Both the position numbers and the translations under genes were made by a program. A DNA stretch of 42,066 bases, taken from UHGV virus genome UHGV-0115695. One strand, written 5' to 3'. Shown here piece after piece: positions 5,358 through 42,066 of the stretch (its first letter is position 1; each line of letters opens with the position of its first letter). Below the pieces are notes generated by a model. That model saw only the letters and a list, made by a program, of their open reading frames with translations. It did not search any database and was not told the DNA's origin. Source of the DNA: a virus.

Positions 5358-5607
<250 letters not shown>

Positions 5608-21109: not shown

Positions 21110-22053
21110 GCAATCCCCCTGTCTGCAAACTTCCCTTCCCGTACTCCAGTTAACGAATCTTCTCTCAGCAAGTAATCAAAATCTGCCGTCCAGCCAGTGT
21201 CGTTGTCTCCGAAGTAAAACGGCTTGGCCTGATGCACAAACGCCCTGACATACGCTCTGAAACCGTCCACGTTTGGCGTTTTCAGTTGCGGGATGATTTT
21301 CTTCAGGCGGCGTTTGCGTTTCTCGTTGACCGCAACAGCGTGTGGCAGTCTGTCACCGACTTCGGTGTTGTAGGCGTTCAGGAAGGATTCGTAGTCGATT
21401 CGTTCTGCCTTGCGACGTTCAGGTTTAACCTGCCCATCGCCTCCCACGTTAGGGGGTAAGGGGGTATTATTTATATTCTTGTTAATACCTTCTTGTTCAT
21501 GATGTGCGGTTGTTTGTGCGGCTTCATGTGCGCTTTCATGTGCGGCATGTACGCTGAAAGCCGCGCCATTACTGGCTTCATCATGTGCGGCATCATGTGC
21601 GGTTGTTTGTGCGGCTTCATGTGCGGGTGAGTTGTCCATTTTTTGAGCGTATTCATGGTAATTTGTGATGGTGATCACACGACCTTTTTTCTTCTCTCCA
21701 TCAATGGAGATCATCCCCTCTTTCACAAAAACCTGAAGCATCCTCTCAACCTGATCACGGCTTGCTGGCTTGCCATGTCTGTCGCATAACTGAAGACCTA
21801 AATCAGCTGCTGTCACAACCAGTTGACCGGGTTGCAGATGCCATTCATGACCTTTGAAATTCGCTTTGTATGGCTTTCTGGCGGCATTCAGGAGAAGGTT
21901 TTCCCACAGGGTGCGAAGATAAACATCTTTCGCCCATGACTGTTTCAGAATGCTCCGGTACAACGGAATGTAACCAGTTTTCTGGTTCTCCATCCTGTTG
22001 CTCCTGCGCTCGTGTGCGGCGCTGAAATCGTAGATTTTTGCTGTATTGCTCAT
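21106..22053 (-). CDS. Replication initiator, lambda O-like (P22 gp18-like), with origin iterons inside the gene
   Basis: 315 aa; internal His/Ala-rich repeats (HEAAQTTAH) encoded by DNA iterons; precedes helicase gene with overlapping stop/start. Confidence 0.8.
21455..21650. repeat. Replication origin: array of CATGTGCGG-type iterons followed by AT-rich segment
   Basis: Repeated ..atgtgcgg.. units between 21480 and 21650 and adjacent tattatttatattcttgttaat AT-rich stretch at 21455-21480, inside the O-like gene as in lambda ori. Confidence 0.75.
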
Positions 22054-30916: not shown

Positions 30917-31117
30917 ATGCAACACGAACTACAACCTGATTCACTGGTTGATTTGAAATTCATCATGGCTGATACTGGCTTCGGTAAAACCTTCATCTAT
31001 GACCGGATTAAGTCCGGCGACCTGCCAAAAGCCAAAGTTATCCACGGACGAGCAAGATGGTTATATCGTGACCATTGTGAATTCAAAAATAAGCTCTTAA
31101 GCCGCGCTAATGGGTAA
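30917..31117 (+). CDS. AlpA-family excisionase / transcriptional regulator (xis-like)
   Basis: 66 aa; HTH FIMADTGFGKTFIYDRIKSGDLPKAKV; directly upstream of and co-oriented with the integrase. Confidence 0.8.
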   Translation: MQHELQPDSLVDLKFIMADTGFGKTFIYDRIKSGDLPKAKVIHGRARWLYRDHCEFKNKLLSRANG

Positions 31118-31365
31118 AATAGCGGGTAAAATATTTTTCACATCTAAAAAATACCATTCCAATCAATCCCCTGCTGCCTCAAGTAGATGTCTGCAGGGGA
31201 CACCATGAACACTTCTCACTAAGTCCAATTAATTCCATAACTCACTGTTTTAACTGATATCATCTCCTTATACTCGTCCAGCAAAGTACCATTATTTCTA
31301 ATGGAATCTATACATCTTTGCGTATAACATTGTGTATAACTGAGTTCGATCTTTTTTCTATACAC

Positions 31366-32541
31366 ATGCTGCTATCTGACATCCAAATAAAAAGAGCAAA
31401 ACCGAAGGACAAACCCTATACGCTTAACGATGGTATGGGGCTATCACTCCTGATCGACACAGCGGGCAGTAAAGGCTGGCGTTTTCGCTATCGCTTTGCA
31501 GGTAAGCCTAAGATGATTTCCTTTGGCGTATATGGCGATGTGTCGTTGGCACAGGCACGTACCAAACGTGATGAAGCGCGTTCGATGTTAGCCAAAGGGA
31601 TAAACCCAAGTGAAGCCAGAAAAGCAGATAAGATTGCTTTGCAGTTCGCGCATGAGAACAGCTTTGAGTCTGTGGCCAGAGAATGGCACTCATCGAAAAA
31701 AGCCACCTGGTCAGAGGGTTATGCAAAAGAGGTTCTCAATTGTATGGAAAAGGATATTTTTCCTTTTATCGGCCAGCGCCCAATTGAGCAGATTGAACCA
31801 TTAGAACTGCTAACCGTCCTGCAAAAAATAGAGAAAAGAGGTGCGCTAGAGCAAACCAGTAAGATCCGCCGCCGCTGTGGTGAAGTGCTTCGTTATGCTG
31901 TTGCCACTGGTAGAGCAAAGTATAATTTTGCACCCGATTTAGCTATCGCACTCAACAAACCTAAAACCCAACACTTCCCGTTCCTGACTGAAAGCGAGTT
32001 GCCCGAGTTCGTTAATGCTCTGGATAACTATCAGGGCAGTTTAGTTACCAAATACGCCACGCAGCTGTTGATGCTAACAGGCGTGCGAACAATTGAACTA
32101 CGTGCAGCGGAATGGGCTGAGTTTGATTTAGATAATGCCTTATGGGAGATCCCCAAAGAACGGATGAAGAAACGCCGCCCCCATCTGGTTCCGTTATCAA
32201 CTCAGGCGATCAATATCCTGAAAAAGCTGCAAGAAATAACAGGGAATTACAGCCTCGTTTTCCCTGGCCGAAATGACGTCAGGAAACCAATGAGCGAAGC
32301 CAGCATCAACAAAGTGATAAAACTACTGGGTTATCACGGTCGGTTAACGGGTCACGGTTTCAGGCATACCATGAGCACCATCTTGCATGAGCATGGGTTT
32401 GAAAGTGCCTGGATTGAAATGCAGCTTGCGCATGTTGATAAGAACTCTATTCGAGGTACTTACAATCATGCGCAATATATTAAAGATCGACAAGTAATGA
32501 TGGAATGGTACGCTAGCTTATTAAATACGACCTGCTATTAA
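31366..32541 (+). CDS. int: Tyrosine integrase, P4-family (arm-type N-terminal DNA-binding domain)
   Basis: N-terminus IKRAKPKDKPYTLNDGMGLSLLIDTAGSKGWRFRYRFAGKPK typical of P4/CP4-57-type integrases; C-terminal catalytic region with R...HGFRHT...Y; ATG at 31366 preferred over the upstream TTG. Confidence 0.9.
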   Translation: MLLSDIQIKRAKPKDKPYTLNDGMGLSLLIDTAGSKGWRFRYRFAGKPKMISFGVYGDVSLAQARTKRDEARSMLAKGINPSEARKADKIALQFAHENSFESVAREWHSSKKATWSEGYAKEVLNCMEKDIFPFIGQRPIEQIEPLELLTVLQKIEKRGALEQTSKIRRRCGEVLRYAVATGRAKYNFAPDLAIALNKPKTQHFPFLTESELPEFVNALDNYQGSLVTKYATQLLMLTGVRTIELRAAEWAEFDLDNALWEIPKERMKKRRPHLVPLSTQAINILKKLQEITGNYSLVFPGRNDVRKPMSEASINKVIKLLGYHGRLTGHGFRHTMSTILHEHGFESAWIEMQLAHVDKNSIRGTYNHAQYIKDRQVMMEWYASLLNTTCY

Positions 32542-33471
32542 ATCCAGCATGAAACAAATATGGTGAGTAATTTGATACTGTTTGTTTTTTGGCAACCCAG
32601 GGAAATGCCTTACAGTTGGTTGACTATTGTAATAATAATAGTTAAGACCAATGTTGCTGCCAAACTGGGTTGGATGTTGGGGAACAAGATTTGTAATTTG
32701 ATCTGAAACATCTAAAAATTTTGCAGTAACATTTGAACTTCCTCGTTGCGTGTTGCTTGATACAAAATGACGAATCCAAACTGTATTCGCTTGTAAATTC
32801 TTGAACACCAAATGTGCGGCAACAGCAGAAGGTTGACCACCTCCAAGATCTAGTACCTGGCCAGTAATTGTATAATCGCCAAATCCTAAGTAATTTTGTC
32901 CCACGAATTGATGTGCGTGCGTGAAAAGTTCCGGCCCATTATAATCAGCATTTTTTGCTAACTTTCTAAAGTTATCGCTAATAATAATTAACTTCGACAA
33001 AGGAAGAAGAGCGCACTGATTAGGAAGCATTTTATTATTTAAAACAACATGATAACTAATCAATTGATTTGTCGCCAACAACTGAATATCAGAGTTGGAT
33101 AATGATGGATTATCATATAGAAGTGCAACTCGTCTATTTAAGTTAGCATTCAACCAATTATTAATATCATTAATCGTTGTATTGGGCTGAATAAGATATC
33201 CAGAGATGATATTGTTTTTATTTGTTAATACACTTGATAAATTTTGATTTAAAGTTAAGACGTTATTGTGTGAAGAAAAATCTTCCTGATAAGGATTAAG
33301 GATAACAATTATGTCAGAATTCCAAACATTTAAACATGTTAATAAATTTCTCGTATTGACGTTAATTGGTTCTAAAATTGGTAGCAGACCATTTAGGCTA
33401 ACTCCCTTCGCAACGAGGTCCCTAAGGCATAATAACTCTGTACTTCTCGCATACAAATATGGGCTATACAT
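32521..33471 (-). CDS. Unknown protein B of low-GC two-gene cassette (316 aa)
   Basis: Long uninterrupted ORF, AT-rich codon usage distinct from flanks, 22 nt downstream of protein A; only weak motif VLDLGGGQ; no family recognised. Confidence 0.75.
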   Translation of the reverse strand: MYSPYLYARSTELLCLRDLVAKGVSLNGLLPILEPINVNTRNLLTCLNVWNSDIIVILNPYQEDFSSHNNVLTLNQNLSSVLTNKNNIISGYLIQPNTTINDINNWLNANLNRRVALLYDNPSLSNSDIQLLATNQLISYHVVLNNKMLPNQCALLPLSKLIIISDNFRKLAKNADYNGPELFTHAHQFVGQNYLGFGDYTITGQVLDLGGGQPSAVAAHLVFKNLQANTVWIRHFVSSNTQRGSSNVTAKFLDVSDQITNLVPQHPTQFGSNIGLNYYYYNSQPTVRHFPGLPKNKQYQITHHICFMLDLIAGRI

Positions 33472-33492
33472 AACTTACAACTCCTGAGGATA

Positions 33493-34374
33493 TCAACAAA
33501 TTTTAATTTTTACATCCATCAAATTCATGATGAATTCTTTTTGCTTTCTTGATAATGGTGTTGCATAACCTAAAACACGTAAACATGCTGGAAGAGAATA
33601 AATATAATCCAAAAAAACTTTGTCGTTACATCTTTTTTTCATAGCAGAGATAAAGTATTTATTTGCTATGTTTAATGGCATCTGCATGAATATCTCTTTA
33701 CAATATTCATAAACCAATCCATTAGGCATATTTATTTTAGTTGAAGTGTAATCTTCTATTATAGCTAAGAACTCTTCCTTTCTAAGAACTGAAAACAAGC
33801 TGTCACTTTTAATATAATCAATATTTGAATCTGCCTCCTTAATGACACTCAATTGATCTTTTTTATTCAAAACCATAACTCCCACTCTGGGGAGATTTAA
33901 AGCACAATATTTACTTGCATACTCTGGATGTGTAACTATATACACTTTATCAAAAACATCCAAATAATCAGGGGCTTGAGTAATCAACCTTTTTGGTGAA
34001 TCATACTCTGTCTTAATCTCGTAAGCTGTAGACGTACCATTAAACACCGCAACATCCACTATAGAGTTTTTAATTGGTAACTCTATGGACGACGAACTTG
34101 TTTTTGGGCTGTGCTTACCGAATATTATTTTATTGACAAGTGCTGTCTTATAAACATATTCATTTCTATAATTCAGACGCAAAAAATCATATAATGATGT
34201 AAATAAATCCCTTAGTGAAATCTCATGTTCATTATTATCATTGTTTGAAAACAGTGTTTCATAGCAGTAAGAATCAAAACTCCCAAATAAATCCGAAATA
34301 TCCTTACCTTTTGCTAAGGATGAAAAAATGGGGCGACGGAAAAATTTAGCATATTCCTTTTTATTATGACTCAT
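33493..34374 (-). CDS. Unknown protein A of low-GC two-gene cassette (293 aa), possible PD-(D/E)xK-like nuclease
   Basis: Long ORF, AT-rich; segment SIVDVAVFNGTSTAYEIKTE has the D...ExK spacing of restriction-endonuclease-fold catalytic cores (inference only). Confidence 0.75.
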   Translation of the reverse strand: MSHNKKEYAKFFRRPIFSSLAKGKDISDLFGSFDSYCYETLFSNNDNNEHEISLRDLFTSLYDFLRLNYRNEYVYKTALVNKIIFGKHSPKTSSSSIELPIKNSIVDVAVFNGTSTAYEIKTEYDSPKRLITQAPDYLDVFDKVYIVTHPEYASKYCALNLPRVGVMVLNKKDQLSVIKEADSNIDYIKSDSLFSVLRKEEFLAIIEDYTSTKINMPNGLVYEYCKEIFMQMPLNIANKYFISAMKKRCNDKVFLDYIYSLPACLRVLGYATPLSRKQKEFIMNLMDVKIKIC

Positions 34375-35054
34375 TACTCATACTCTATAAACATCATGCA
34401 ATTTGATAAGTTATGACGAATTCTCACCATCCAGTTACTACCTGTACATACTAATCAAAAAAAACGAGTACGCAAGATACGAAAGTACTTTTCTTGTTCA
34501 CCAGTTAGCTTACCTTGATCCTCACCAGCGACTGGAAGATAGGTAGCAGTATATGTGGAAACCTTCCCCTAGCTAGGTCTACAAACGTAGTTTGGGCATT
34601 TAGGCTCCACGATTCACGGTTTGACACGGCCTGATATCTGCACATTCGTTTTGATATGCAGCAATCGTGAAAAAGGGAAAATATACGCTCGACAGACCAA
34701 AACGGCACTACACCGCACCCGCCTGCGGTTTTCATATCACTAAAAATTTTCAGCCTGGATTTTTTACAAACGATACCGCCAGTCCGTGCCAGTCCTCGAG
34801 ATGTACTGCGATACAGGAACTGAAAAGAATGAAAAGAAATTCATTTTTTTTCAGTTTTACTGTCCGTCGAATCTATGGCCTGAATACGCAACTCTATGAT
34901 ATTAAATGGATAATTAATTTTAGGTGTGTGATTTTATGAAGGTTTGTGAAACATGAAGAAGATAACCAGTTGAAAAATAATAATTTTATGACCGTATAAA
35001 CTGAAATCCTGTGTTCAGGTTCCGGGAACAGATCGGCCATTCCCGACGCATACT

Positions 35055-35327
35055 TTACCCATTCTTTTGCGCAGCCAGCAGCAACTTTAAAGCCTTTTCC
35101 CGTTCCTCGGGTGGAATTGCATCAATCAGCTCTTTAACCCTTCCCTGCCCGTTCAGCGCGCTTGGACTAACGGAATGGGAGAAAGCAACATTCATCACAA
35201 ACGAGTGACCGCACTCCACATTAGAGCAATAGCAGTACACATCGTACAGTTGTGGGTGTTTCCTGTTTGTTTTACCTATCCGTGCTACTGCCTGACATGT
35301 GGGGCAGTACATTCTCATCATCTTCAT
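35055..35327 (-). CDS. ogr: Ogr/Delta-family zinc-finger late transcription activator
   Basis: 90 aa; CPTCQ...CYCSNVECGHSF zinc-finger arrangement typical of P2 Ogr / P4 Delta. Confidence 0.8.
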   Translation of the reverse strand: MKMMRMYCPTCQAVARIGKTNRKHPQLYDVYCYCSNVECGHSFVMNVAFSHSVSPSALNGQGRVKELIDAIPPEEREKALKLLLAAQKNG

Positions 35328-35392
35328 CGTTCTGTGCCCTATACTGTTGCCCGCCAGAAGAAGGGATTTGGATCCCTACCTCTTGTTCTGAA

Positions 35393-35585
35393 CGTGTAAC
35401 ACTGGTAACACGTGTAACGCTATTGATTTAAAAGGATTTAATCTGTTACCAGTTAGCAAAATCAAGAGGTAACGCGTGGTAACACACCATTTTTTGTTAC
35501 CTCTGTTACCAGTCAGTATTTTTGACTGGTAACACTGAAGAACCGCATCAGTAACGGGTGTTACCTCTGTTACCAGTGTTACCTC
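35393..35585. repeat. Iteron array (about 12 GTTACC/GGTAAC cores in both orientations), putative satellite replication origin
   Basis: Repeated TGTTACC and its complement read directly in the sequence, immediately 3' of the primase gene; resembles P4 TGTTCACC iterons bound by alpha. Confidence 0.7.
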
Positions 35586-35609
35586 ATAAAAATAAGACTC
35601 ACGCGATAA

Positions 35610-38297
35610 TCACTCAGGTTCAGCGCTTCCCAGTACCTGTGTATTGAACTGGTACACACGTTTAAGCCCTATTTCTGGCAGGCGAATGCTGTTTTGCGTC
35701 CGGCCATCTTCACCGGGTTTCAGCCAGCCCGCGTCCACACACAACCTGGCCACCTTACGCGAGTCAAATCCCTTACAGATCTCCTTCCAGCCTGACGGGA
35801 GAACGTAGAACGTCACAACCGGCTCTGTCACGTTGTCTCCTTTATCGACTTTTCTGAATCCCATCATTGAAACAGGCCGGTTCCTGTCGTCATTCCAGTC
35901 AGCAAACCGACTGAACTGATTACGCGTCATGAAGTCCCGAACCTGTTCAAGTGCCGCTTTATCTTCCTGATTAGCTGTATGGCCCCGGTCAGCCATCCAT
36001 GCAGCCAGACAGCTTTGAGCGGCACGAAAGGCCTCTCCCTCCGGCCATCCTGTGATGCCCGCTTTTGTGGCCAGCTCCCCGGCCATCGCAACCAGAGCAA
36101 AACGGGTAACAGCCCGGCCAACCTGATTCCCGGCATTTTCCGGCGTCAGCCTTCGGGTATACTCTTTCAATAAGGCTTTCGCCTGACTGGTCAGTTCCGG
36201 CAGATCAGCGGTCAGGCAATACAGCCAGTCGCGGAATGGTGCACCATGATAATGCGCTACGTGCTGCTCAAGATGCTCAGCCAGGGTTTTCCCGCTACTG
36301 AAGCCATGAAGTTCTTCAAACACGCCATACTTGCCCGAATCGCTTGGGATCTGGATCATTCTGACCTCAACCCCGGCATACGTACGTTCCCCGGCGCTTG
36401 CCGCATGCTCTACCAGTGACAGTTCCCCGGTAGACAGAAACAACAGATTCCAGCGGTTGGTTTCCCTTACCGAACCATCTGTTCTGGCTCTGGCTTTGCC
36501 CTGCCCGTTAGCCAGCATATAAGCGATATTCCCCGCCTCCCTGCCGTCAACCTCCCGGATTTCATCCAGCATCAGCGTGGCATCATTGCGGCGGCTCGCC
36601 GTTCCTTCTAAGGCATTCCCCGTCGCCCGCCACGTATGCCAGAAATCTGTTCCACCACATACTGATGCAGCCACTTTCATCGTCGTGGTTTTACCGTCTG
36701 TGGATTCCCCTTTGAGGTGATAACCTCCACCGCCGATACCAACCAGTTTCAGAAGGGGGGCAGCAAATGCCAGACTCACCGCAAAGGCAAGACGGGCATT
36801 CTTTATGCAATAACGGCCTATATTTTCACGCCAGCCCTCTGATGTGCCGCTGACACGAAAATCACGCCCCTGCACACTCGATGTTTGTAAGATGACTGAC
36901 TGGGCTTCGCGCCCTATCACTTCATCCTGGAGAACGTAAACCCCGCCGTGCCAGCCAGTTTTATTCACACAGGTTACTTTTCTGTCCGGTTTACACAGCG
37001 AGATATATTCCATCAGGAATGCTCTGGCCATGCCATTAATGTTGATGTAAGAAAGCCCGTTAACCAGCAGAACGCGGCGCAGTTCTTCCCCGCTACCGCC
37101 CAGCATCTCCATCGGCATTGCCCATTTACGGCTGTTTCCGTTGGTATCTTCCCATTCCAGCAAACGCCCGTAATTACTTCCATCAGCATCACTGGTGATT
37201 GCCGTCACCCGCAACGGACTGCAAATTTTGATATTACGTATCTCTGTATCACCATCAGACTTATTAACCAGCTTGTCGTACCACAAATATTCTTTTGTCA
37301 GCCGGAACCCTTCTGGTAAACGGGTCTGCCCTTTGCCATGCAGCGTCATTTCTTCACGAAAGGCATCTCTCGCCCGTTCTTTCCCCACTTCCTGCCGATA
37401 ATCATCCCAGTCAGCCTTATGGCGTACCGGAGGGAGCGTTACCCAGCCATCCACCGCTTTGGCGGCTTTCTCTGCCTGAATACGCCCGGTGTTTTCTTTG
37501 CCGTCAGCCAGATCATTATCTCCGGCCAGAATGATCCGAGTTTCCGGCCAGCGTTTTCGGATCTGCTCCGTCACCTTCAGTAAATTGGTGGCAGCGACAG
37601 CCGCCACGATCCATCCTTCAGTCAGCAGACTGACGGTAAGCGCCGTGGCAAAACCCTCAGTGATAATCACCTGTTCAGGTGTTTCAGCGGGTATATCGGT
37701 CAGGGCAATGAATGCGCCAGACAGCTGGCTACCGGGCAGCAGACTTTTATCCCCGTCAGGATTGATAAGCTGGCCACCAGTAATATTCCCGGAAATATCC
37801 GTCAAAGGCAGCAGTAATGAACCGGTGGAAAATGTTATTCCGGCCAGATTCAAAGGCTGTGACAGCAAGGGAAGTGAATACCCGTGTAAGCCCTTATTTG
37901 TCAGATAGACCGGCTCACCATTGCAGGACTGCTGTCTGAGTCTGGTATATCGCTCCGCGCCCGCTTCTTTTCCTGCGGCCTTTTTCCTGGCTGGCAATGC
38001 GGGCTTCTCCTGTATTTCTGGTAATGCAAGCGCCTCAGATACCATCCCGGCGACTTCTTTTATCTTTCTTCCTGTCACCAGACGAACCAGATCAAGACCA
38101 TCGCCATGACCGCACTGATTACAAAACCACGTCCCTCGCCCCGCTTTATCGTCCAGTCGAAAACGATCTTTTCCACCACAGGCAGGGCAAGCCCCATGAT
38201 GTCCTGCGGACGGTACTTTAATACCTAATGCTGACAGGATATAAGGCCAGCGCCCAATTGCAGCTCCGGAAATCGTGGATACAGACGGTGTTTTCAC
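35610..38297 (-). CDS. Primase-helicase, P4 alpha family
   Basis: 895 aa; N-terminal zinc ribbon CPACGGKDRF...CNQCGHG, Toprim-like ITEGFATALTV, C-terminal helicase with Walker A GESTDGKTT. Confidence 0.9.
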   Translation of the reverse strand: MKTPSVSTISGAAIGRWPYILSALGIKVPSAGHHGACPACGGKDRFRLDDKAGRGTWFCNQCGHGDGLDLVRLVTGRKIKEVAGMVSEALALPEIQEKPALPARKKAAGKEAGAERYTRLRQQSCNGEPVYLTNKGLHGYSLPLLSQPLNLAGITFSTGSLLLPLTDISGNITGGQLINPDGDKSLLPGSQLSGAFIALTDIPAETPEQVIITEGFATALTVSLLTEGWIVAAVAATNLLKVTEQIRKRWPETRIILAGDNDLADGKENTGRIQAEKAAKAVDGWVTLPPVRHKADWDDYRQEVGKERARDAFREEMTLHGKGQTRLPEGFRLTKEYLWYDKLVNKSDGDTEIRNIKICSPLRVTAITSDADGSNYGRLLEWEDTNGNSRKWAMPMEMLGGSGEELRRVLLVNGLSYININGMARAFLMEYISLCKPDRKVTCVNKTGWHGGVYVLQDEVIGREAQSVILQTSSVQGRDFRVSGTSEGWRENIGRYCIKNARLAFAVSLAFAAPLLKLVGIGGGGYHLKGESTDGKTTTMKVAASVCGGTDFWHTWRATGNALEGTASRRNDATLMLDEIREVDGREAGNIAYMLANGQGKARARTDGSVRETNRWNLLFLSTGELSLVEHAASAGERTYAGVEVRMIQIPSDSGKYGVFEELHGFSSGKTLAEHLEQHVAHYHGAPFRDWLYCLTADLPELTSQAKALLKEYTRRLTPENAGNQVGRAVTRFALVAMAGELATKAGITGWPEGEAFRAAQSCLAAWMADRGHTANQEDKAALEQVRDFMTRNQFSRFADWNDDRNRPVSMMGFRKVDKGDNVTEPVVTFYVLPSGWKEICKGFDSRKVARLCVDAGWLKPGEDGRTQNSIRLPEIGLKRVYQFNTQVLGSAEPE

Positions 38298-38704
38298 AGC
38301 AGCACCTCCTGACCTTCCGGCTTCACAAATTCAAAACCTTCGGGTAGTTCGCCATCAGGTGCTCCGAAAATAATATCCCGGTAAACCTCACGCATCTCTG
38401 TGACACCAAAAACTGACAGGCGAATATTTTCTGACATAAAGCCTGGTTTAAGCATTTTTTCCAGTTTCTCTGCGGCCAGTATGCAACCAGCATCAGCCCC
38501 AAACTCATTCACCCACGGCATTTCAATATGGTAAATAATATTACTCACCACTTTTTCGTGGGAGAGTTCTATTCGTTCGCCATCTTCAATATAAACAGGT
38601 TCATTATGAACACGCACCATTAAGGAAATGAATGCATCAGCAATGTAGTAGCGTAAGACTGCTGTTCGTAAAGCATGCGCCTTTAAATTTTGATTATTAT
38701 TCAT
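38294..38704 (-). CDS. Hypothetical satellite protein
   Basis: 136 aa; stop overlaps primase start (ATGA); no family recognised. Confidence 0.5.
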   Translation of the reverse strand: MNNNQNLKAHALRTAVLRYYIADAFISLMVRVHNEPVYIEDGERIELSHEKVVSNIIYHIEMPWVNEFGADAGCILAAEKLEKMLKPGFMSENIRLSVFGVTEMREVYRDIIFGAPDGELPEGFEFVKPEGQEVLL

Positions 38705-38933
38705 CGCGCATCACTCCCTTAATTGTGCTGGTTTCCTTAACAACGCCATCCAGTTGTTCGGCAATACAGGCCACTAAAGCCGCAGCGCCTTCCGCTGAAA
38801 CAGTTCTCGCTCCATTCACTGTGGGCACGGACAAGACCTCTGCAAGAAACTCACTGGCCAGTGCCGCCCGTAACAGACGACTCTCCCCCTGTTCACTCAA
38901 TATGCAGCCTTGCTTAAAATTCATGGATTTCAT
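38697..38933 (-). CDS. Hypothetical satellite protein
   Basis: 78 aa; overlapping coupled ORF upstream of the 136-aa gene. Confidence 0.45.
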   Translation of the reverse strand: MKSMNFKQGCILSEQGESRLLRAALASEFLAEVLSVPTVNGARTVSAEGAAALVACIAEQLDGVVKETSTIKGVMRDE

Positions 38934-39133
38934 GCAACCACCTCCCCGGCTCTTTTCACAGGGATACGGGCAGCAAAGCTCAGGATAAATTCAGTGGCAA
39001 GTTTAAGGCGTGCAGCATGCTCGCATTCTGCGATTACACGCACAGGGCGTGGACGGGCATCACGGTCTGTACGGCGGACAGCCAGAAAGACAAAGGTAAA
39101 TTCAGGGTGAGATAAAGCAGGGACTGTAGCCAT
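38930..39133 (-). CDS. Hypothetical small basic protein (internal start of the 196-aa track ORF)
   Basis: 67 aa from MATVPALSHPEF...; GAAGGAGG RBS 8 nt upstream; the long N-terminal extension crosses an apparent promoter region and is rejected. Confidence 0.45.
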   Translation of the reverse strand: MATVPALSHPEFTFVFLAVRRTDRDARPRPVRVIAECEHAARLKLATEFILSFAARIPVKRAGEVVA

Positions 39134-39607
39134 AATGGCAACCTCCTTCAGATAGCGGGTAACGCTACCACCGGAGTTCCTACGCTCATGGGTGGTAGCC
39201 CAGACGGGGGTAGGAATACCGGCTCTGAAGGATACCGGCCAGCCCGAAAGCTGCCCCGCCTGGACTACCATAATTCTGATGATGTGGCGTAAAAAATAAA
39301 AAAATACAATCAGCCACCACACCATAAATTTTAGGTGAGTCAAAGCTGCGACACAAAAAAACACGCCTGGCGCGTGTAGTATCGCCTTCAGATAACACGG
39401 GTTCCTACGCCCGGCTGCCGATTTTGCGGCAACCTTTAAACTATATCCCGCGCATTCCTGGTGAGGCAAGAAATTTATAACCGAAAACTGATCATTGCCT
39501 GGATTAATTAACGCTGGCATGCTTAAGCCTCTGCTTAAAAATAGTTCTTCATTTTTCCTGATGCTGTAAACGAGACCCGCCTCTGAGCGGGTCTTTCTGT
39601 CGCTAAG

Positions 39608-40612
39608 TCAATCCGCAAACGTCAGGGCGCTCTCATCGACAGCCGCGTACAGTTCAGGTTCACCGAGTGCATAACCTTCATTGCGCAGGTAGGAATGCAC
39701 GTATTCACTGCTTTCATCATCAAACTCAGCACGAAACCAGCGTGTTATCGCCTGAGTGTAAATATGCAGATTATCCAGCGTCGTTACTGCCAGACGCTTA
39801 CCCGGCATAAACGGGGGAATAAACGCAAAGCGGCCAGCAACAGAACTTGTAGCCATCTGTGCCGCATTCACATCAGACGGGCGGTCTGCGGCATTAAATA
39901 ACTTCAGGCGTTGATGTGCTGCCAGCTCTGCCCCAACCAGTACAACCAGACGAGGATCTTCACGAAACTGCTCAGCAATAAGCTCTGTAATCAGATGGTT
40001 GGCCAGAGCATCAATATTTTTCCAGGTGCCAGTCTCTCCCAGAGTGACAGGCTCAGAGATGATTTGCTTTCCGTTCCCGTAGGCTTTCGCCAGTGCATGC
40101 CAGCCAATATTGACATCCTCGCCTTTTTTATTGATTTCCGGGTTTGTAGTATTTGCAATCGACACACCATTGAAACCGACCCGCAGCATGTCCAGCGCAT
40201 ATGCCTGGGCAAAAAAGCTCTCAACCGTTTTCTCAAACTCATCCGGCACGCCGGTATGGTAAATATGAGACATATCGGAATAGCTGATCCGGGCGCAGGT
40301 ATCCGTCTCTGTCAGAAAGAACTCCGTACCATTGATTGCCATTTTTTTGTGGAAACGGCCACCATCCACACGTCCGGTATACAGTTCACTGGCACCAATA
40401 TTGACGGCATTACCTGACACGGCGTTAACATCACGTAGGGTAATATTTTTAATAAGCCACCCGGATTCCAGAATTGAGGTACGCAGTATATTTTCAGTAG
40501 GTTCGCTTAATGCAAAGCGTCTGTTTGATTCTTCCTGATAGTTAGTGCCAGTGACGAATTTATTATGATAACGACGTGCTGCGTCCGGCCTTTCAGTTTT
40601 GAAGGCATACAT
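39608..40612 (-). CDS. Putative major capsid protein, P2 gpN-like (recalled similarity; unverified)
   Basis: 334 aa; segments GFNGV...GW, DALANHLITELIAEQFREDPRLVVLVGAELAA and TTLDNLHIY resemble what I recall of P2 gpN. Confidence 0.5.
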   Translation of the reverse strand: MYAFKTERPDAARRYHNKFVTGTNYQEESNRRFALSEPTENILRTSILESGWLIKNITLRDVNAVSGNAVNIGASELYTGRVDGGRFHKKMAINGTEFFLTETDTCARISYSDMSHIYHTGVPDEFEKTVESFFAQAYALDMLRVGFNGVSIANTTNPEINKKGEDVNIGWHALAKAYGNGKQIISEPVTLGETGTWKNIDALANHLITELIAEQFREDPRLVVLVGAELAAHQRLKLFNAADRPSDVNAAQMATSSVAGRFAFIPPFMPGKRLAVTTLDNLHIYTQAITRWFRAEFDDESSEYVHSYLRNEGYALGEPELYAAVDESALTFAD

Positions 40613-40634
40613 AGTTTTTCACCTTTTTAAGTAT

Positions 40635-41495
40635 TTAAGAAAAGATTTTATTTTTGTACTCAGTAACCAGATTGTATTTCATTACATGCTCAACATAATC
40701 CCGGTCACTTACGACTGAACGTAATACATAATTATCTGCTCGATAGTACTCCCTGTAAGCCATAGCTCTTGCCATTCCACCGTTATTTAATACATAACGA
40801 TCAGTTGGAACGCTACAACGACTAATAATTTCACTCACGGAATCAGATAAAGACTTGAGTGCATCAGTAATAAATTTAATATCACGGACAACGTCACTGT
40901 CATTAAATACAGAAATAAAATCAGCAGGGATCTGGCCGGATTGAGGAAATATATTCAGTAAACGCTTATCGATTCCCTTCCCAATGTAGTTTCCTTCATC
41001 GGCCAGTACTCCCGGCAAAAGCTTGATCGTGCTCAATCGACTATGTTGTTCATTCAACCGGGAAACAGCCAGATGGTAATACCGTTCAGCATCCGCTCGT
41101 TCAGCATGCCCCATTTTATTCGTTTTGGCTTCAGCAATGCTACTGACGCCGTTTTTTGAGAATGTGCTTTTCCATGCAACTTCCGCATTTGTCACTTCAC
41201 GCTGCCGGAAAGATAACTCTTCCTCTTCCTGACGACACAACTGGGCATAACGGCTCAGGAGCAGGTTGATCTCATTCGCCACAGTTTCCGTATCAGGTAC
41301 TGTTAACCCCGTAAGTGAATACAGCTTTTCACCTTTAGCTCGCAGCTTATTCAGTGAATATATTTCAATAATACGCACAATACAGGCCGTGTCGCTATGA
41401 GTCTCTTTAAATGATCTTACTTTGTAACTATCTAACACCGACACATGTTCGTTCTTAATTGATGCCAATTTCTTCTTAAAAACATTGTCAACCAT
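40635..41495 (-). CDS. Hypothetical protein, possibly capsid scaffold-like by position and size
   Basis: 286 aa, immediately upstream of the gpN-like gene (P2 gpO is about the same size and precedes N); AT-rich; no motif recognised. Confidence 0.35.
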   Translation of the reverse strand: MVDNVFKKKLASIKNEHVSVLDSYKVRSFKETHSDTACIVRIIEIYSLNKLRAKGEKLYSLTGLTVPDTETVANEINLLLSRYAQLCRQEEEELSFRQREVTNAEVAWKSTFSKNGVSSIAEAKTNKMGHAERADAERYYHLAVSRLNEQHSRLSTIKLLPGVLADEGNYIGKGIDKRLLNIFPQSGQIPADFISVFNDSDVVRDIKFITDALKSLSDSVSEIISRCSVPTDRYVLNNGGMARAMAYREYYRADNYVLRSVVSDRDYVEHVMKYNLVTEYKNKIFS

Positions 41496-41512
41496 ATATT
41501 TGCCACCTCAAT

Positions 41513-41755
41513 TTAGGAGTTTAATTTTCTATTGAGAATATTCTTCTCTATCCATTCATTAACTTCATGCTCCACCCATGCAACAGAACGAGAACCGATA
41601 GAAACTTGGTTCGGAAATTCATCATTCTTTATCTTTAGATAAATTGTTGACTTGGGTAAGCCAGTCAAATTAATCACTTCTGATATTCTCAGAAGTCTAT
41701 ATCTTTTTTGGGGTGCGTTTTCCCGAGGCAATAAGCTCATGGCTATGTCCTTCAC
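41513..41755 (-). CDS. AlpA-family transcriptional regulator of the satellite
   Basis: 80 aa; RLLRISEVINLTGLPKSTIYLKIKNDEFPNQVSIGSRSVAWVEHEVNEWI HTH typical of AlpA; first gene of the minus-strand operon. Confidence 0.8.
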   Translation of the reverse strand: MKDIAMSLLPRENAPQKRYRLLRISEVINLTGLPKSTIYLKIKNDEFPNQVSIGSRSVAWVEHEVNEWIEKNILNRKLNS

Positions 41756-41901: not shown

Positions 41902-42012
41902 AGTATTACTGAGTGACAACCTTTGCCAATGCTTGTTAATCTCTGATAATAATGAAATTTGACGAATAATATATGTAACAATTTGTAAACTAAAGACTGC
42001 ATTAGGTTTGTT

Positions 42013-42062
42013 GGGGCTGGGCTGGGCTGGGCTGGGCTGGGCTGGGCTGGGCTGGGCTGGGG
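42013..42062. repeat. Hexanucleotide microsatellite, about 8 copies of GGGCTG
   Basis: Perfect period-6 array at the window edge. Confidence 0.95.
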
Positions 42063-42066
42063 AAGA

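Follow-up and report, generated by a model that had tools for sequence, protein, structure and literature searches.

The viral genome UHGV-0115695, whose 42,066 nucleotides are referred to below as the window, carries a two-gene cassette (genes A and B) that is, on our assessment, probably a self-contained anti-phage module, borne as exchangeable cargo by a P4-like satellite and representing a gop-less sister architecture of the gop-beta-cII abortive infection system. In our best reading, A would act as a nuclease effector and B as a sensor or an enzyme.

The genes for A (293 aa) and B (316 aa) lie on the same strand, separated by a spacer of 21 nt, with a good AGGAG Shine-Dalgarno sequence 9 nt ahead of the B start codon, and look translationally linked in this window. 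The 3′ end of gene B overlaps by 21 nt that of the convergent integrase gene, whose stop lies at 32541. These coordinates, lengths, gap and overlap reproduce exactly those given in an initial annotation of the window, and its claim that the cassette is AT-rich was likewise borne out: A and B have GC fractions of 0.306 and 0.341, whereas int stands at 0.456, ogr at 0.48, the primase gene at 0.533 and the whole window at 0.472. When the cassette was shuffled 500 times, the mean length of the longest run without a stop was 77 codons and the maximum 147, so that both ORFs are longer than this chance control; both proteins also match curated HMMs far over the cut-off.

The element that hosts the cassette belongs to an argW-integrated, P4-like, capsid-encoding satellite family. 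Its att core, at the junction with a lambdoid torI prophage, has one exact match where none is expected by chance, and satellites located directly at argW (loci L008 and L041, with an intact tRNA-Arg) share homology from this core onwards. The adjoining integrase is part of the satellite rather than of the lambdoid prophage next to it; genomes without such a prophage have the integrase joined to the same satellite. The 3′ end of its gene varies with the cargo from about position 32480, placing the last ~20 codons inside the variable cargo module. On the other flank, an identical Ogr protein (WP_000783295.1) is found beside other cargos too.

Table 1 Features of the cassette and its satellite context in the window.
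Feature	Position	Strand	Description
att core	31191..31205	+	Identical to tRNA-Arg (argW) 3′ end; junction of lambdoid torI prophage and satellite
Satellite tyrosine integrase	31366..32541	+	P4 type, with arm-binding domain; Pfam Arm-DNA-bind_3, Phage_int_M, Phage_integrase
Gene B	32521..33471	-	sce7725 family; predicted TIM barrel; putative remote homologue of P4 beta (PF14350)
Gene A	33493..34374	-	sce7726 / Phage_P4_cII family; predicted PD-(D/E)xK core (E72, D107, E119, K121) and C-terminal helical domain
Cargo-specific upstream region	34375..34694	-	About 320 bp; absent from satellites with other cargo
Conserved satellite backbone, ogr to hotspot	34695..35054	-	360 bp; near-identical in PARIS and RT-SLATT variants
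22-mer GCAGGCGGGTGCGGTGTAGTGC, putative cos site	34705..34726	-	Right edge of hotspot
Ogr/Delta zinc-finger late activator	35055..35327	-	Pfam PF04606, E 5e-14; backbone gene, right flank of hotspot
Satellite primase-helicase	35610..38297	-	Zn-ribbon, Toprim, DUF927 (Pfam); analogous to P4 alpha

Comparison with sister satellites revealed that the slot between cos and int is a variable defence hotspot of this P4-like satellite. At the position occupied by A and B, on the same satellite backbone, sister elements carry PARIS, retron Ec48, Shedu, RT+SLATT or DprA+HAD, making six cargo types in one slot when the present pair is included, with sharp homology breakpoints. The suggestion of horizontally acquired cargo at a defence hotspot thus holds. 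In the loci with an intact integrase (PARIS, RT+SLATT and retron Ec48), the last cargo gene either runs over the stop codon of the integrase gene or comes within 4 nt of it; the Shedu and DprA+HAD loci are without an intact adjacent integrase. The proteins of PARIS, retron Ec48, Shedu and the other cargos are unrelated to A and B, and the likeness to them is one of position rather than of mechanism.

Upstream of gene A lies a non-coding stretch of 680 bp (34375-35054), which the initial annotation had taken for a leader of the cassette. The length is correct, but only about 320 bp travels with the cassette: homology to the PARIS and RT-SLATT variants ends at about 34695, and the remaining 360 bp, over half of the stretch, belongs to the satellite backbone and includes a cos-like element and a hairpin resembling a terminator. 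The latter two coincide in GCAGGCGGGTGCGGTGTAGTGC, a 22-mer that can form the hairpin and is unchanged in all 14 of the 14 satellite loci compared (in E. coli, Providencia, Yersinia and Morganella), whatever their cargo. The sequence around it matches the ends of the linear Cronobacter phage ESSI-2 and Escherichia phage ESSI2_ev015 records and an internal part of Yersinia phage vB_YenM_324, all three of which we take to be P2-like phages. From its invariance and these matches, GCAGGCGGGTGCGGTGTAGTGC is probably the cos site of the satellite. The cargo-specific portion presumably supplies the promoter and regulatory sequence of the cassette itself, although a scan upstream of A found no strong consensus or convincing sigma-70 promoter. 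A search of the 680 bp for structured RNA gave no Rfam match above chance level. A 76-aa ORF at 34505-34735 was considered as a gop-like gene and rejected: it begins in the backbone, runs into cargo-specific sequence and is not conserved.

Both proteins had initially been described as unrecognised, neither having been placed in a phage structural, replication, lysis or regulatory family. In fact, PGAP labels the pair sce7726 and sce7725 in all 25 of the annotated records listed, and A can be placed by homology in the sce7726 / Phage_P4_cII (PF26915) family. It scores 175.6 bits against the NCBIfam model sce7726 (NF033832; cut-off 70), matches the 'cll' model that PADLOC uses for the published gop-beta-cII system with an E-value of 1.2e-18, and finds P4 cII itself by BLASTP (E 9e-11). 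Homologues of A carry a precomputed PF26915 match; the window protein had no Pfam match in a search of a Pfam copy that does not contain PF26915.

The core of A has the alpha-beta-beta-beta-alpha-beta topology of a restriction endonuclease, the arrangement that defines the PD-(D/E)xK fold. In an alignment of 39 homologues and P4 cII, residues D107, E119 and K121 are unchanged, as is E72 across the 39 homologues; helix 72-87 contains E72, strand 104-111 contains D107, and the E119-x-K121 motif is at the end of strand 115-120. The D107...E119-x-K121 motif pointed out in the initial annotation is present, invariant and matched by the fold, and A is a PD-(D/E)xK-fold protein, by alignment and model, with an intact catalytic triad and a predicted nuclease activity. 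Its best structural match is 3dnx, which we take to be an MmcB-like protein. A has a core fold and an E...D...ExK catalytic signature in common with MmcB-like and NucS-type nucleases, and differs from them in its C-terminal helical domain and its obligatory TIM-barrel partner. The predicted fold agrees with a published HHpred analysis that likened P4 cII to MmcB-like (Pfam) and NucS proteins (Rousset 2022, Table S3). Among solved structures, no sequence-level match to A was found, and a sequence search of the PDB with the family profiles of A and B returned nothing meaningful.

Protein B is identified by sequence as an sce7725 protein, with a full-length match of 242.2 bits to the NCBIfam model (NF033831; cut-off 60), and is predicted with high confidence to form a TIM barrel. 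Its family aligns with that of P4 beta in a profile-profile comparison (hhalign probability 90%, E 1.6e-6), and 12 of the 43 family members give PF14350 matches, all of them sub-threshold; the window's own B has no match to PF14350 (Beta_protein) in Pfam and none to any PADLOC model. On the strength of the profile-profile and sub-threshold matches, B appears to be a remote homologue of P4 beta that lies outside the beta family proper. The invariant polar residues of B comprise E12, E34, N59 and D199, plus H220 and H235 in the subsequent hairpin, and in the predicted structure they sit at or just past the C-terminal ends of the strands, the usual catalytic face. The motif VLDLGGGQ had been read as a hint of an ASKHA protein; the (beta/alpha) TIM-barrel fold is not an ASKHA fold. 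An ASKHA phosphate-binding loop was rejected as well: within GGG only G211 is invariant, and the 10-residue blocks covering 201-220 are modelled less confidently (pLDDT 75-78). A weak Pfam match of B to NAD_synthase (E 0.11) fell under the cut-off and was discarded, and the sole Foldseek match of B in BFVD was an uncharacterised Gordonia phage protein.

A and B form an obligate pair of always adjacent genes. In a species-level genome scan, for which the closer subset of the homologue alignment served as query, gene A was found directly upstream of an intact, full-length B in 22 of 22 loci; only three loci were without A, each of them with a fragment of B. In an acidobacterial MAG the pair is kept with the genes convergent. 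No conserved third gene of a gop-like kind was seen in 25 loci. The family comprises ~1,490 clusters at 50% identity, and the cassette is present in 421 of 5,426 complete E. coli genomes (about 8%), several of them labelled ST131. Outside satellites, the neighbours of such pairs include Lamassu, ThsB, TIR, Cap4 and HipA, as well as Thoeris, CBASS, RES and a PDDEXK_9-ATPase; a pair in Paraburkholderia lies among type I R-M, SLFN, Hachiman and Cap4 genes, and certain homologous pairs are surrounded by housekeeping genes. Two 'phage' records with homologues (MT837073 and OR848224) were not accepted as cases of phage carriage, being unverified contigs of bacterial appearance. In the literature searched we found no experiment on this pair, and a search of defence papers and their supplements for sce7725, sce7726 and the WP accessions returned only an incidental listing of an 'sce7726 family protein' among neighbours that raise DefensePredictor scores.

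The closest described system is gop-beta-cII of P4 (DefenseFinder Rst_gop_beta_cll; Rousset et al. 2022, PMC9122126). This system confers protection from lambda and P1, with Gop and beta described as a likely toxin-antitoxin pair (PMC9122126), and its trigger is phage orf184 (bioRxiv 10.1101/2023.04.06.535777). Its cII and A are members of one PD-(D/E)xK family, and its beta and B appear to be remote homologues; in both systems the TIM-barrel and nuclease genes are neighbours and occupy the variable cos/int slot of a P4-type satellite. The cassette, in contrast to P4, is without gop or any conserved small third gene, and has A followed by B on one strand, whereas in P4 gop-beta is convergent with cII; A is longer than P4 cII by an N-terminal region of ~70 residues, and B falls under the Pfam and PADLOC thresholds for beta. 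Defence activity has been demonstrated for the P4-type trio only. In the beta-family loci of Pseudomonas, Methylibium and Acinetobacter, a cII gene lies beside beta in every case, which suggests a beta-like and cII-like core common to both architectures, and an ORF of 109-161 aa abuts the true beta in all of them. Gop, the presumed P4 effector, is absent from the cassette, so the P4 mechanism is not simply transferable to A and B. The term 'novel defence system' used in the initial annotation is too strong, given the PF26915 and PADLOC 'cll' assignments of A and the existing PGAP labels; a variant architecture of a known system is the better description.

If the pair is such a module, B may hold A inactive in the resting cell, or license it, by analogy with the neutralisation of Gop toxicity by beta. 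Upon infection, a phage product, or a metabolite or nucleic-acid species induced by the phage, might be sensed at the pocket of B, much as orf184 triggers the P4 system. Activated A would then cut DNA and phage replication would stop, probably at a cost to the cell, and the satellite would gain through the exclusion of competing phages. A bolder version, possible at best, is that B is a true enzyme of an uncharacterised class that makes, destroys or installs a nucleotide or nucleic-acid mark gating A, and that the TIM-barrel and nuclease pair, not Gop, would be the ancestral immune core of both architectures.

Other explanations were weighed against this reading. It is unlikely, in our estimate, that the pair works like a restriction-modification system, with B modifying DNA or nucleotides by base exchange of the TGT/DpdA type and A cutting DNA that lacks or bears the mark, such that defence would be direct and not abortive. 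B does share a TIM-barrel fold and a conserved catalytic-face pocket with TGT-like Cap10 and DpdA, TIM-barrel enzymes of defence that act on nucleic acids or nucleotides; this likeness is generic, at the level of the fold only, and we regard it as a lead. The description of Gop and beta as a likely toxin-antitoxin pair (PMC9122126) raises the alternative that A is a nuclease toxin and B its antidote, serving only to stabilise the satellite or island without a direct anti-phage role, and the tight linkage of A and B, their carriage on mobile elements, the adjacent integrases and the HipA and HigB neighbours would all fit. However, at 316 aa and with enzyme-like conservation B would be an atypical antitoxin, the slot elsewhere holds bona fide defence systems rather than addiction modules, and many pairs are found in chromosomal defence islands, which together make simple addiction improbable.

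P4 cII owes its name to its description as a clear-plaque (lysogeny) gene. This historical name, and the position of the cassette next to the putative cos site and int, would suit a role in the satellite life cycle, such as lysogeny control or helper exploitation, instead of immunity. We think this quite improbable: at least 19 of the 22 pairs at species level are not adjacent to Ogr, primase or capsid genes, several are in defence islands without a satellite, and sister satellites that lack the pair have PARIS, a retron or Shedu in its place. The reading that we consider least likely is the chance acquisition of an MmcB-type pair with a housekeeping role in DNA repair. Such an origin is hinted at by 3dnx as the best structural match of A, by the few pairs beside housekeeping genes and by the HHpred link of P4 cII to Pfam MmcB-like (Rousset 2022, Table S3); against it stand the patchy distribution, the low GC, the context of mobile elements and defence islands, and the exchangeable slot.

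The cos/int slot defines a second P4-type hotspot; the satellite family that bears it encodes a capsid and would probably go unnoticed in searches based on psu. If active, the cassette would be a minimal form, with two genes, of the gop-beta-cII system, which is poorly understood. Having no membrane toxin, it would offer a simpler setting for asking what is sensed or catalysed by a beta-type TIM barrel and how such a barrel controls a nuclease of the cII type. About 8% of complete E. coli genomes carry the cassette, among them several with an ST131 label, so it could influence how susceptible a clinically important lineage is to phages. Should the reading of B as an enzyme in an ancestral core prove true, the ~1,490 clusters of the family would represent a widespread two-component immunity with new chemistry.

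The two genes between int and the Ogr/Delta gene of the P4-like satellite at argW both belong to named NCBIfam families, sce7726 in the case of A (E 9.6e-52) and sce7725 in the case of B (E 1.1e-71), with both matches far over the curated cut-offs. They are therefore not unrecognised, as the initial annotation had it, and A is in addition tied to cII of phage P4. ORF calls and GC counts confirmed the layout that had been described: two ORFs separated by 21 nt, with an AGGAG ribosome-binding site inside this gap, 9 nt before the ATG of B, and a 21-nt overlap between B and the 3' end (stop region) of the convergent integrase gene. The GC content of A (0.306) and B (0.341) is low compared with that of int (0.456), ogr (0.48), the primase gene (0.533) and the window (0.472), and the longest stop-free run in shuffled cassettes was 147 codons. 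The 680 bp between A and the Ogr/Delta gene, proposed to be a leader, are indeed non-coding, but only ~320 bp of them belong to the cassette; in this upstream region an Rfam search returned no family and a promoter scan no clear promoter.

Protein A matches the PADLOC model 'cll' (E 1.2e-18), which represents the cII protein of the P4 anti-phage system gop-beta-cII. In the P4 reference record cII is itself annotated as a 'sce7726 family protein', and the Pfam family PF26915 'Phage_P4_cII' is present on homologues of A. The catalytic cores of A and P4 cII could be aligned by BLASTP (39% identity, E 9e-11). Across 39 homologues of A, residues E72, D107, E119 and K121 are invariant, the last three also being kept in P4 cII, and in an AlphaFold2 model (pLDDT 93) the four lie on helix 1, strand 2 and strand 3, in the canonical PD-(D/E)xK layout. 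Their invariance and placement support the earlier reading of A as a PD-(D/E)xK nuclease, in line with Rousset et al. (2022, PMC9122126), where HHpred assigned P4 cII as MmcB-like/NucS.

Protein B was modelled as a TIM barrel (pLDDT 93). This fold, together with a GGG stretch in which G211 alone is invariant, led us to reject the ASKHA loop previously suggested for it; G211 lies within a lower-confidence part of the model. While the sequence of B itself gave no match in Pfam or PADLOC searches, 12 of 43 members of the sce7725 family matched PF14350 (Beta_protein) below threshold, and a profile-profile comparison aligned sce7725 with the P4 beta family over 251 columns (probability 90%, E 1.6e-6), pairing an invariant N-terminal Y-P-x4-R-x2-E, a G-D motif (D199 with D241) and one tryptophan. 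These matches and this alignment indicate that B is a remote homologue of P4 beta. The invariant polar residues E12, E34, N59 and D199, with H220 and H235 on the following hairpin, sit at or just after the C-terminal strand ends in the model, which is where the catalytic face usually lies; this suggests that B may be an enzyme or a ligand sensor.

Beta-family loci of Pseudomonas aeruginosa, Methylibium and Acinetobacter have the P4 order, with beta preceded by a small ORF (109-161 aa) and followed by a convergent cII. Thus, whereas gop-beta-cII has a small ORF ahead of beta and a convergent cII, the A-B pair has no gop, and A lies upstream on the same strand. Judged by gene order, these are two sister architectures with a common TIM-barrel and cII-nuclease core, one with gop and the other, the A-B pair, without. 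PADLOC-DB v2 lacks a model for B and would presumably not call gop-beta-cII in the absence of gop and beta matches.

A B-profile scan of one genome per species yielded 25 loci. All 22 with a full-length B carried an A-family gene directly upstream, on the same strand and at a distance of a few tens of bases; at the three loci where A was missing, only B fragments were present. The pair ranges from Enterobacterales to Burkholderiales, Xanthomonadales and Acidobacteria, and is convergent in one acidobacterial MAG. No conserved third gene was found at the 25 loci, the sole recurrent neighbour being an integrase (6 loci). The sce7725 family comprises ~1,490 clusters at 50% identity. At an identity of at least 99%, the cassette was present in 421 of 5,426 complete E. 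coli genomes, chromosomal every time; among the records listed, several carry an ST131 label, and SE15, JJ1886 and EC958 are among the strains. In a phage collection it was absent at the DNA level. Two 'phage' records with A/B homologues, MT837073 and OR848224, are unverified contigs that resemble pieces of bacterial DNA more than phages: one carries a defence-island-like set of genes (AAA-ATPase with PDDEXK_9, RES, DUF2971), the second metabolic genes.

The satellite backbone (int, cargo, Ogr, DUF927 primase, Ash/Icd-like protein, P2-family capsid) recurs in E. coli MB06172, 33E and SC434, where it abuts tRNA-Arg (argW) with no lambdoid prophage present; the Ogr protein is identical between MB06172 and 33E. 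Since homology to these prophage-free loci starts at the att core at the argW 3'-end, the lambdoid prophage, which ends in torI, is inserted in tandem. The window does not include an integrase of the prophage itself, and sequence comparison assigns the integrase that is present to the satellite. Neither psu nor sid was annotated or seen in the satellite, which is an unusual capsid-encoding P4 relative; a Yersinia relative also has a gpO-N scaffold-like gene. Direct and inverted TGTTACC / GGTAACA repeats cluster in the primase-ogr gap (35400-35600), with identical copies at 35495-35513 and 35559-35577; they resemble replication-origin iterons such as the P4 ori/crr repeats. Other repeats are (GGGCT)n at 42004-42066, reaching the right window end, (TCTGGC)n at 5393-5468 within a 203-aa ORF, and, at 21498-21625, a CATGTGCGG-type repeat with a 12-nt period in a lambdoid-prophage ORF of 315 aa. 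A 'prophage' cell-death locus described in ECOR61 (Silas et al., bioRxiv 10.1101/2023.04.06.535777) may be the backbone (35610-39520) of the same satellite family.

Coordinates of the cassette, the satellite and the adjoining prophage
Feature	Position	Strand	Description
Lambdoid prophage	1-31205		in tandem with satellite at argW
torI-type excisionase gene	30917-31117		last gene of lambdoid prophage
att core	31191-31205		CTGCAGGGGACACCA; argW 3'-end
Satellite	31191-41750		P4-like: int, Ogr/Delta, Toprim-DUF927 primase, Icd/Ash-like
int	31366-32541		satellite
B	32521-33471	minus	316 aa ORF
A	33493-34374	minus	293 aa ORF
22-mer	34705-34726		GCAGGCGGGTGCGGTGTAGTGC; GC-rich, just on conserved side of right cargo boundary
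Primase	35610-38297		Toprim-DUF927, satellite
Ash/Icd-like	38930-39520		satellite
Capsid	39608-40612		P2-family major capsid, PF05125, E 1e-66
286-aa protein	40635-41495		satellite

Identity between cargo variants stops at ~34695 on the right, and on the left decays from ~32480, so that the last ~20 int codons (32480-32541) lie within the exchangeable module and vary with the cargo. Wherever the integrase is intact, its stop is overlapped by the last gene of the cargo, by 16-27 nt in the window and sister loci L004, L008 and L009 and by 4 nt in L041. Together, the varying int 3' end and these overlaps suggest that recombination in this part of int is what exchanges the cargo. Beyond the right boundary, the 22-mer is invariant in 14/14 satellite loci from four genera (E. 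coli, Providencia, Yersinia and Morganella). The region around it has matches at the extreme termini of two linear records, those of Cronobacter phage ESSI-2 and Escherichia phage ESSI2_ev015, and at an internal position in Yersinia phage vB_YenM_324; all three are P2-like phages. The element is most probably the satellite cos site, and the putative cos match points to ESSI-2-like phages as probable helpers. With the 22-mer as probable cos, the slot would lie between cos and int, as does the P4 hotspot (Rousset et al., PMC9122126).

In sister satellites this slot holds PARIS (DUF4435 and AAA ATPase), a reverse transcriptase with a SLATT protein, retron Ec48, DprA with a HAD hydrolase, or Shedu with a small protein. 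The proposal that the cassette occupies a defence hotspot is thus borne out by these cargos. Outside satellites, a Paraburkholderia pair has type I R-M, a Schlafen/AlbA protein, Hachiman and a Cap4 nuclease as its neighbours, and Lamassu (LmuA/LmuB, E down to 1e-192), ThsB (1e-128), TIR, Cap4 and HipA recur within three genes on each side of the pair.

The P4 system guards against lambda and P1, and Gop is toxic without beta (PMC9122126); expression of phage orf184 leads to killing by gop-beta-cII (bioRxiv 10.1101/2023.04.06.535777). On balance, the cassette is probably a two-gene anti-phage module related to this system. As there is no Gop, A, a predicted cII-type nuclease, would be the only plausible effector, and its beta-like partner B would either hold A back or use its conserved pocket to detect an infection signal. 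Once released by infection, A would cut DNA, and this cutting would probably abort the infection. We hold these details of A release and B's role with much less confidence than the module itself. A modification-dependent, restriction-like scheme, with B as the modifying enzyme, is unlikely, as is a pure addiction module, and a function in the satellite life cycle is more doubtful still. Housekeeping genes surround some A-B loci; a housekeeping role in repair is very improbable.

A literature search did not find sce7725 or sce7726 named as a defence system. The cassette had been put forward as a novel one; given that the families are named, that the link between A and P4 cII stands in public annotation and that the hotspot logic is established, it is a variant of a known system and a good candidate for testing, not something categorically new. 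The capsid-encoding satellite family that carries it probably escapes psu-anchored hotspot surveys.
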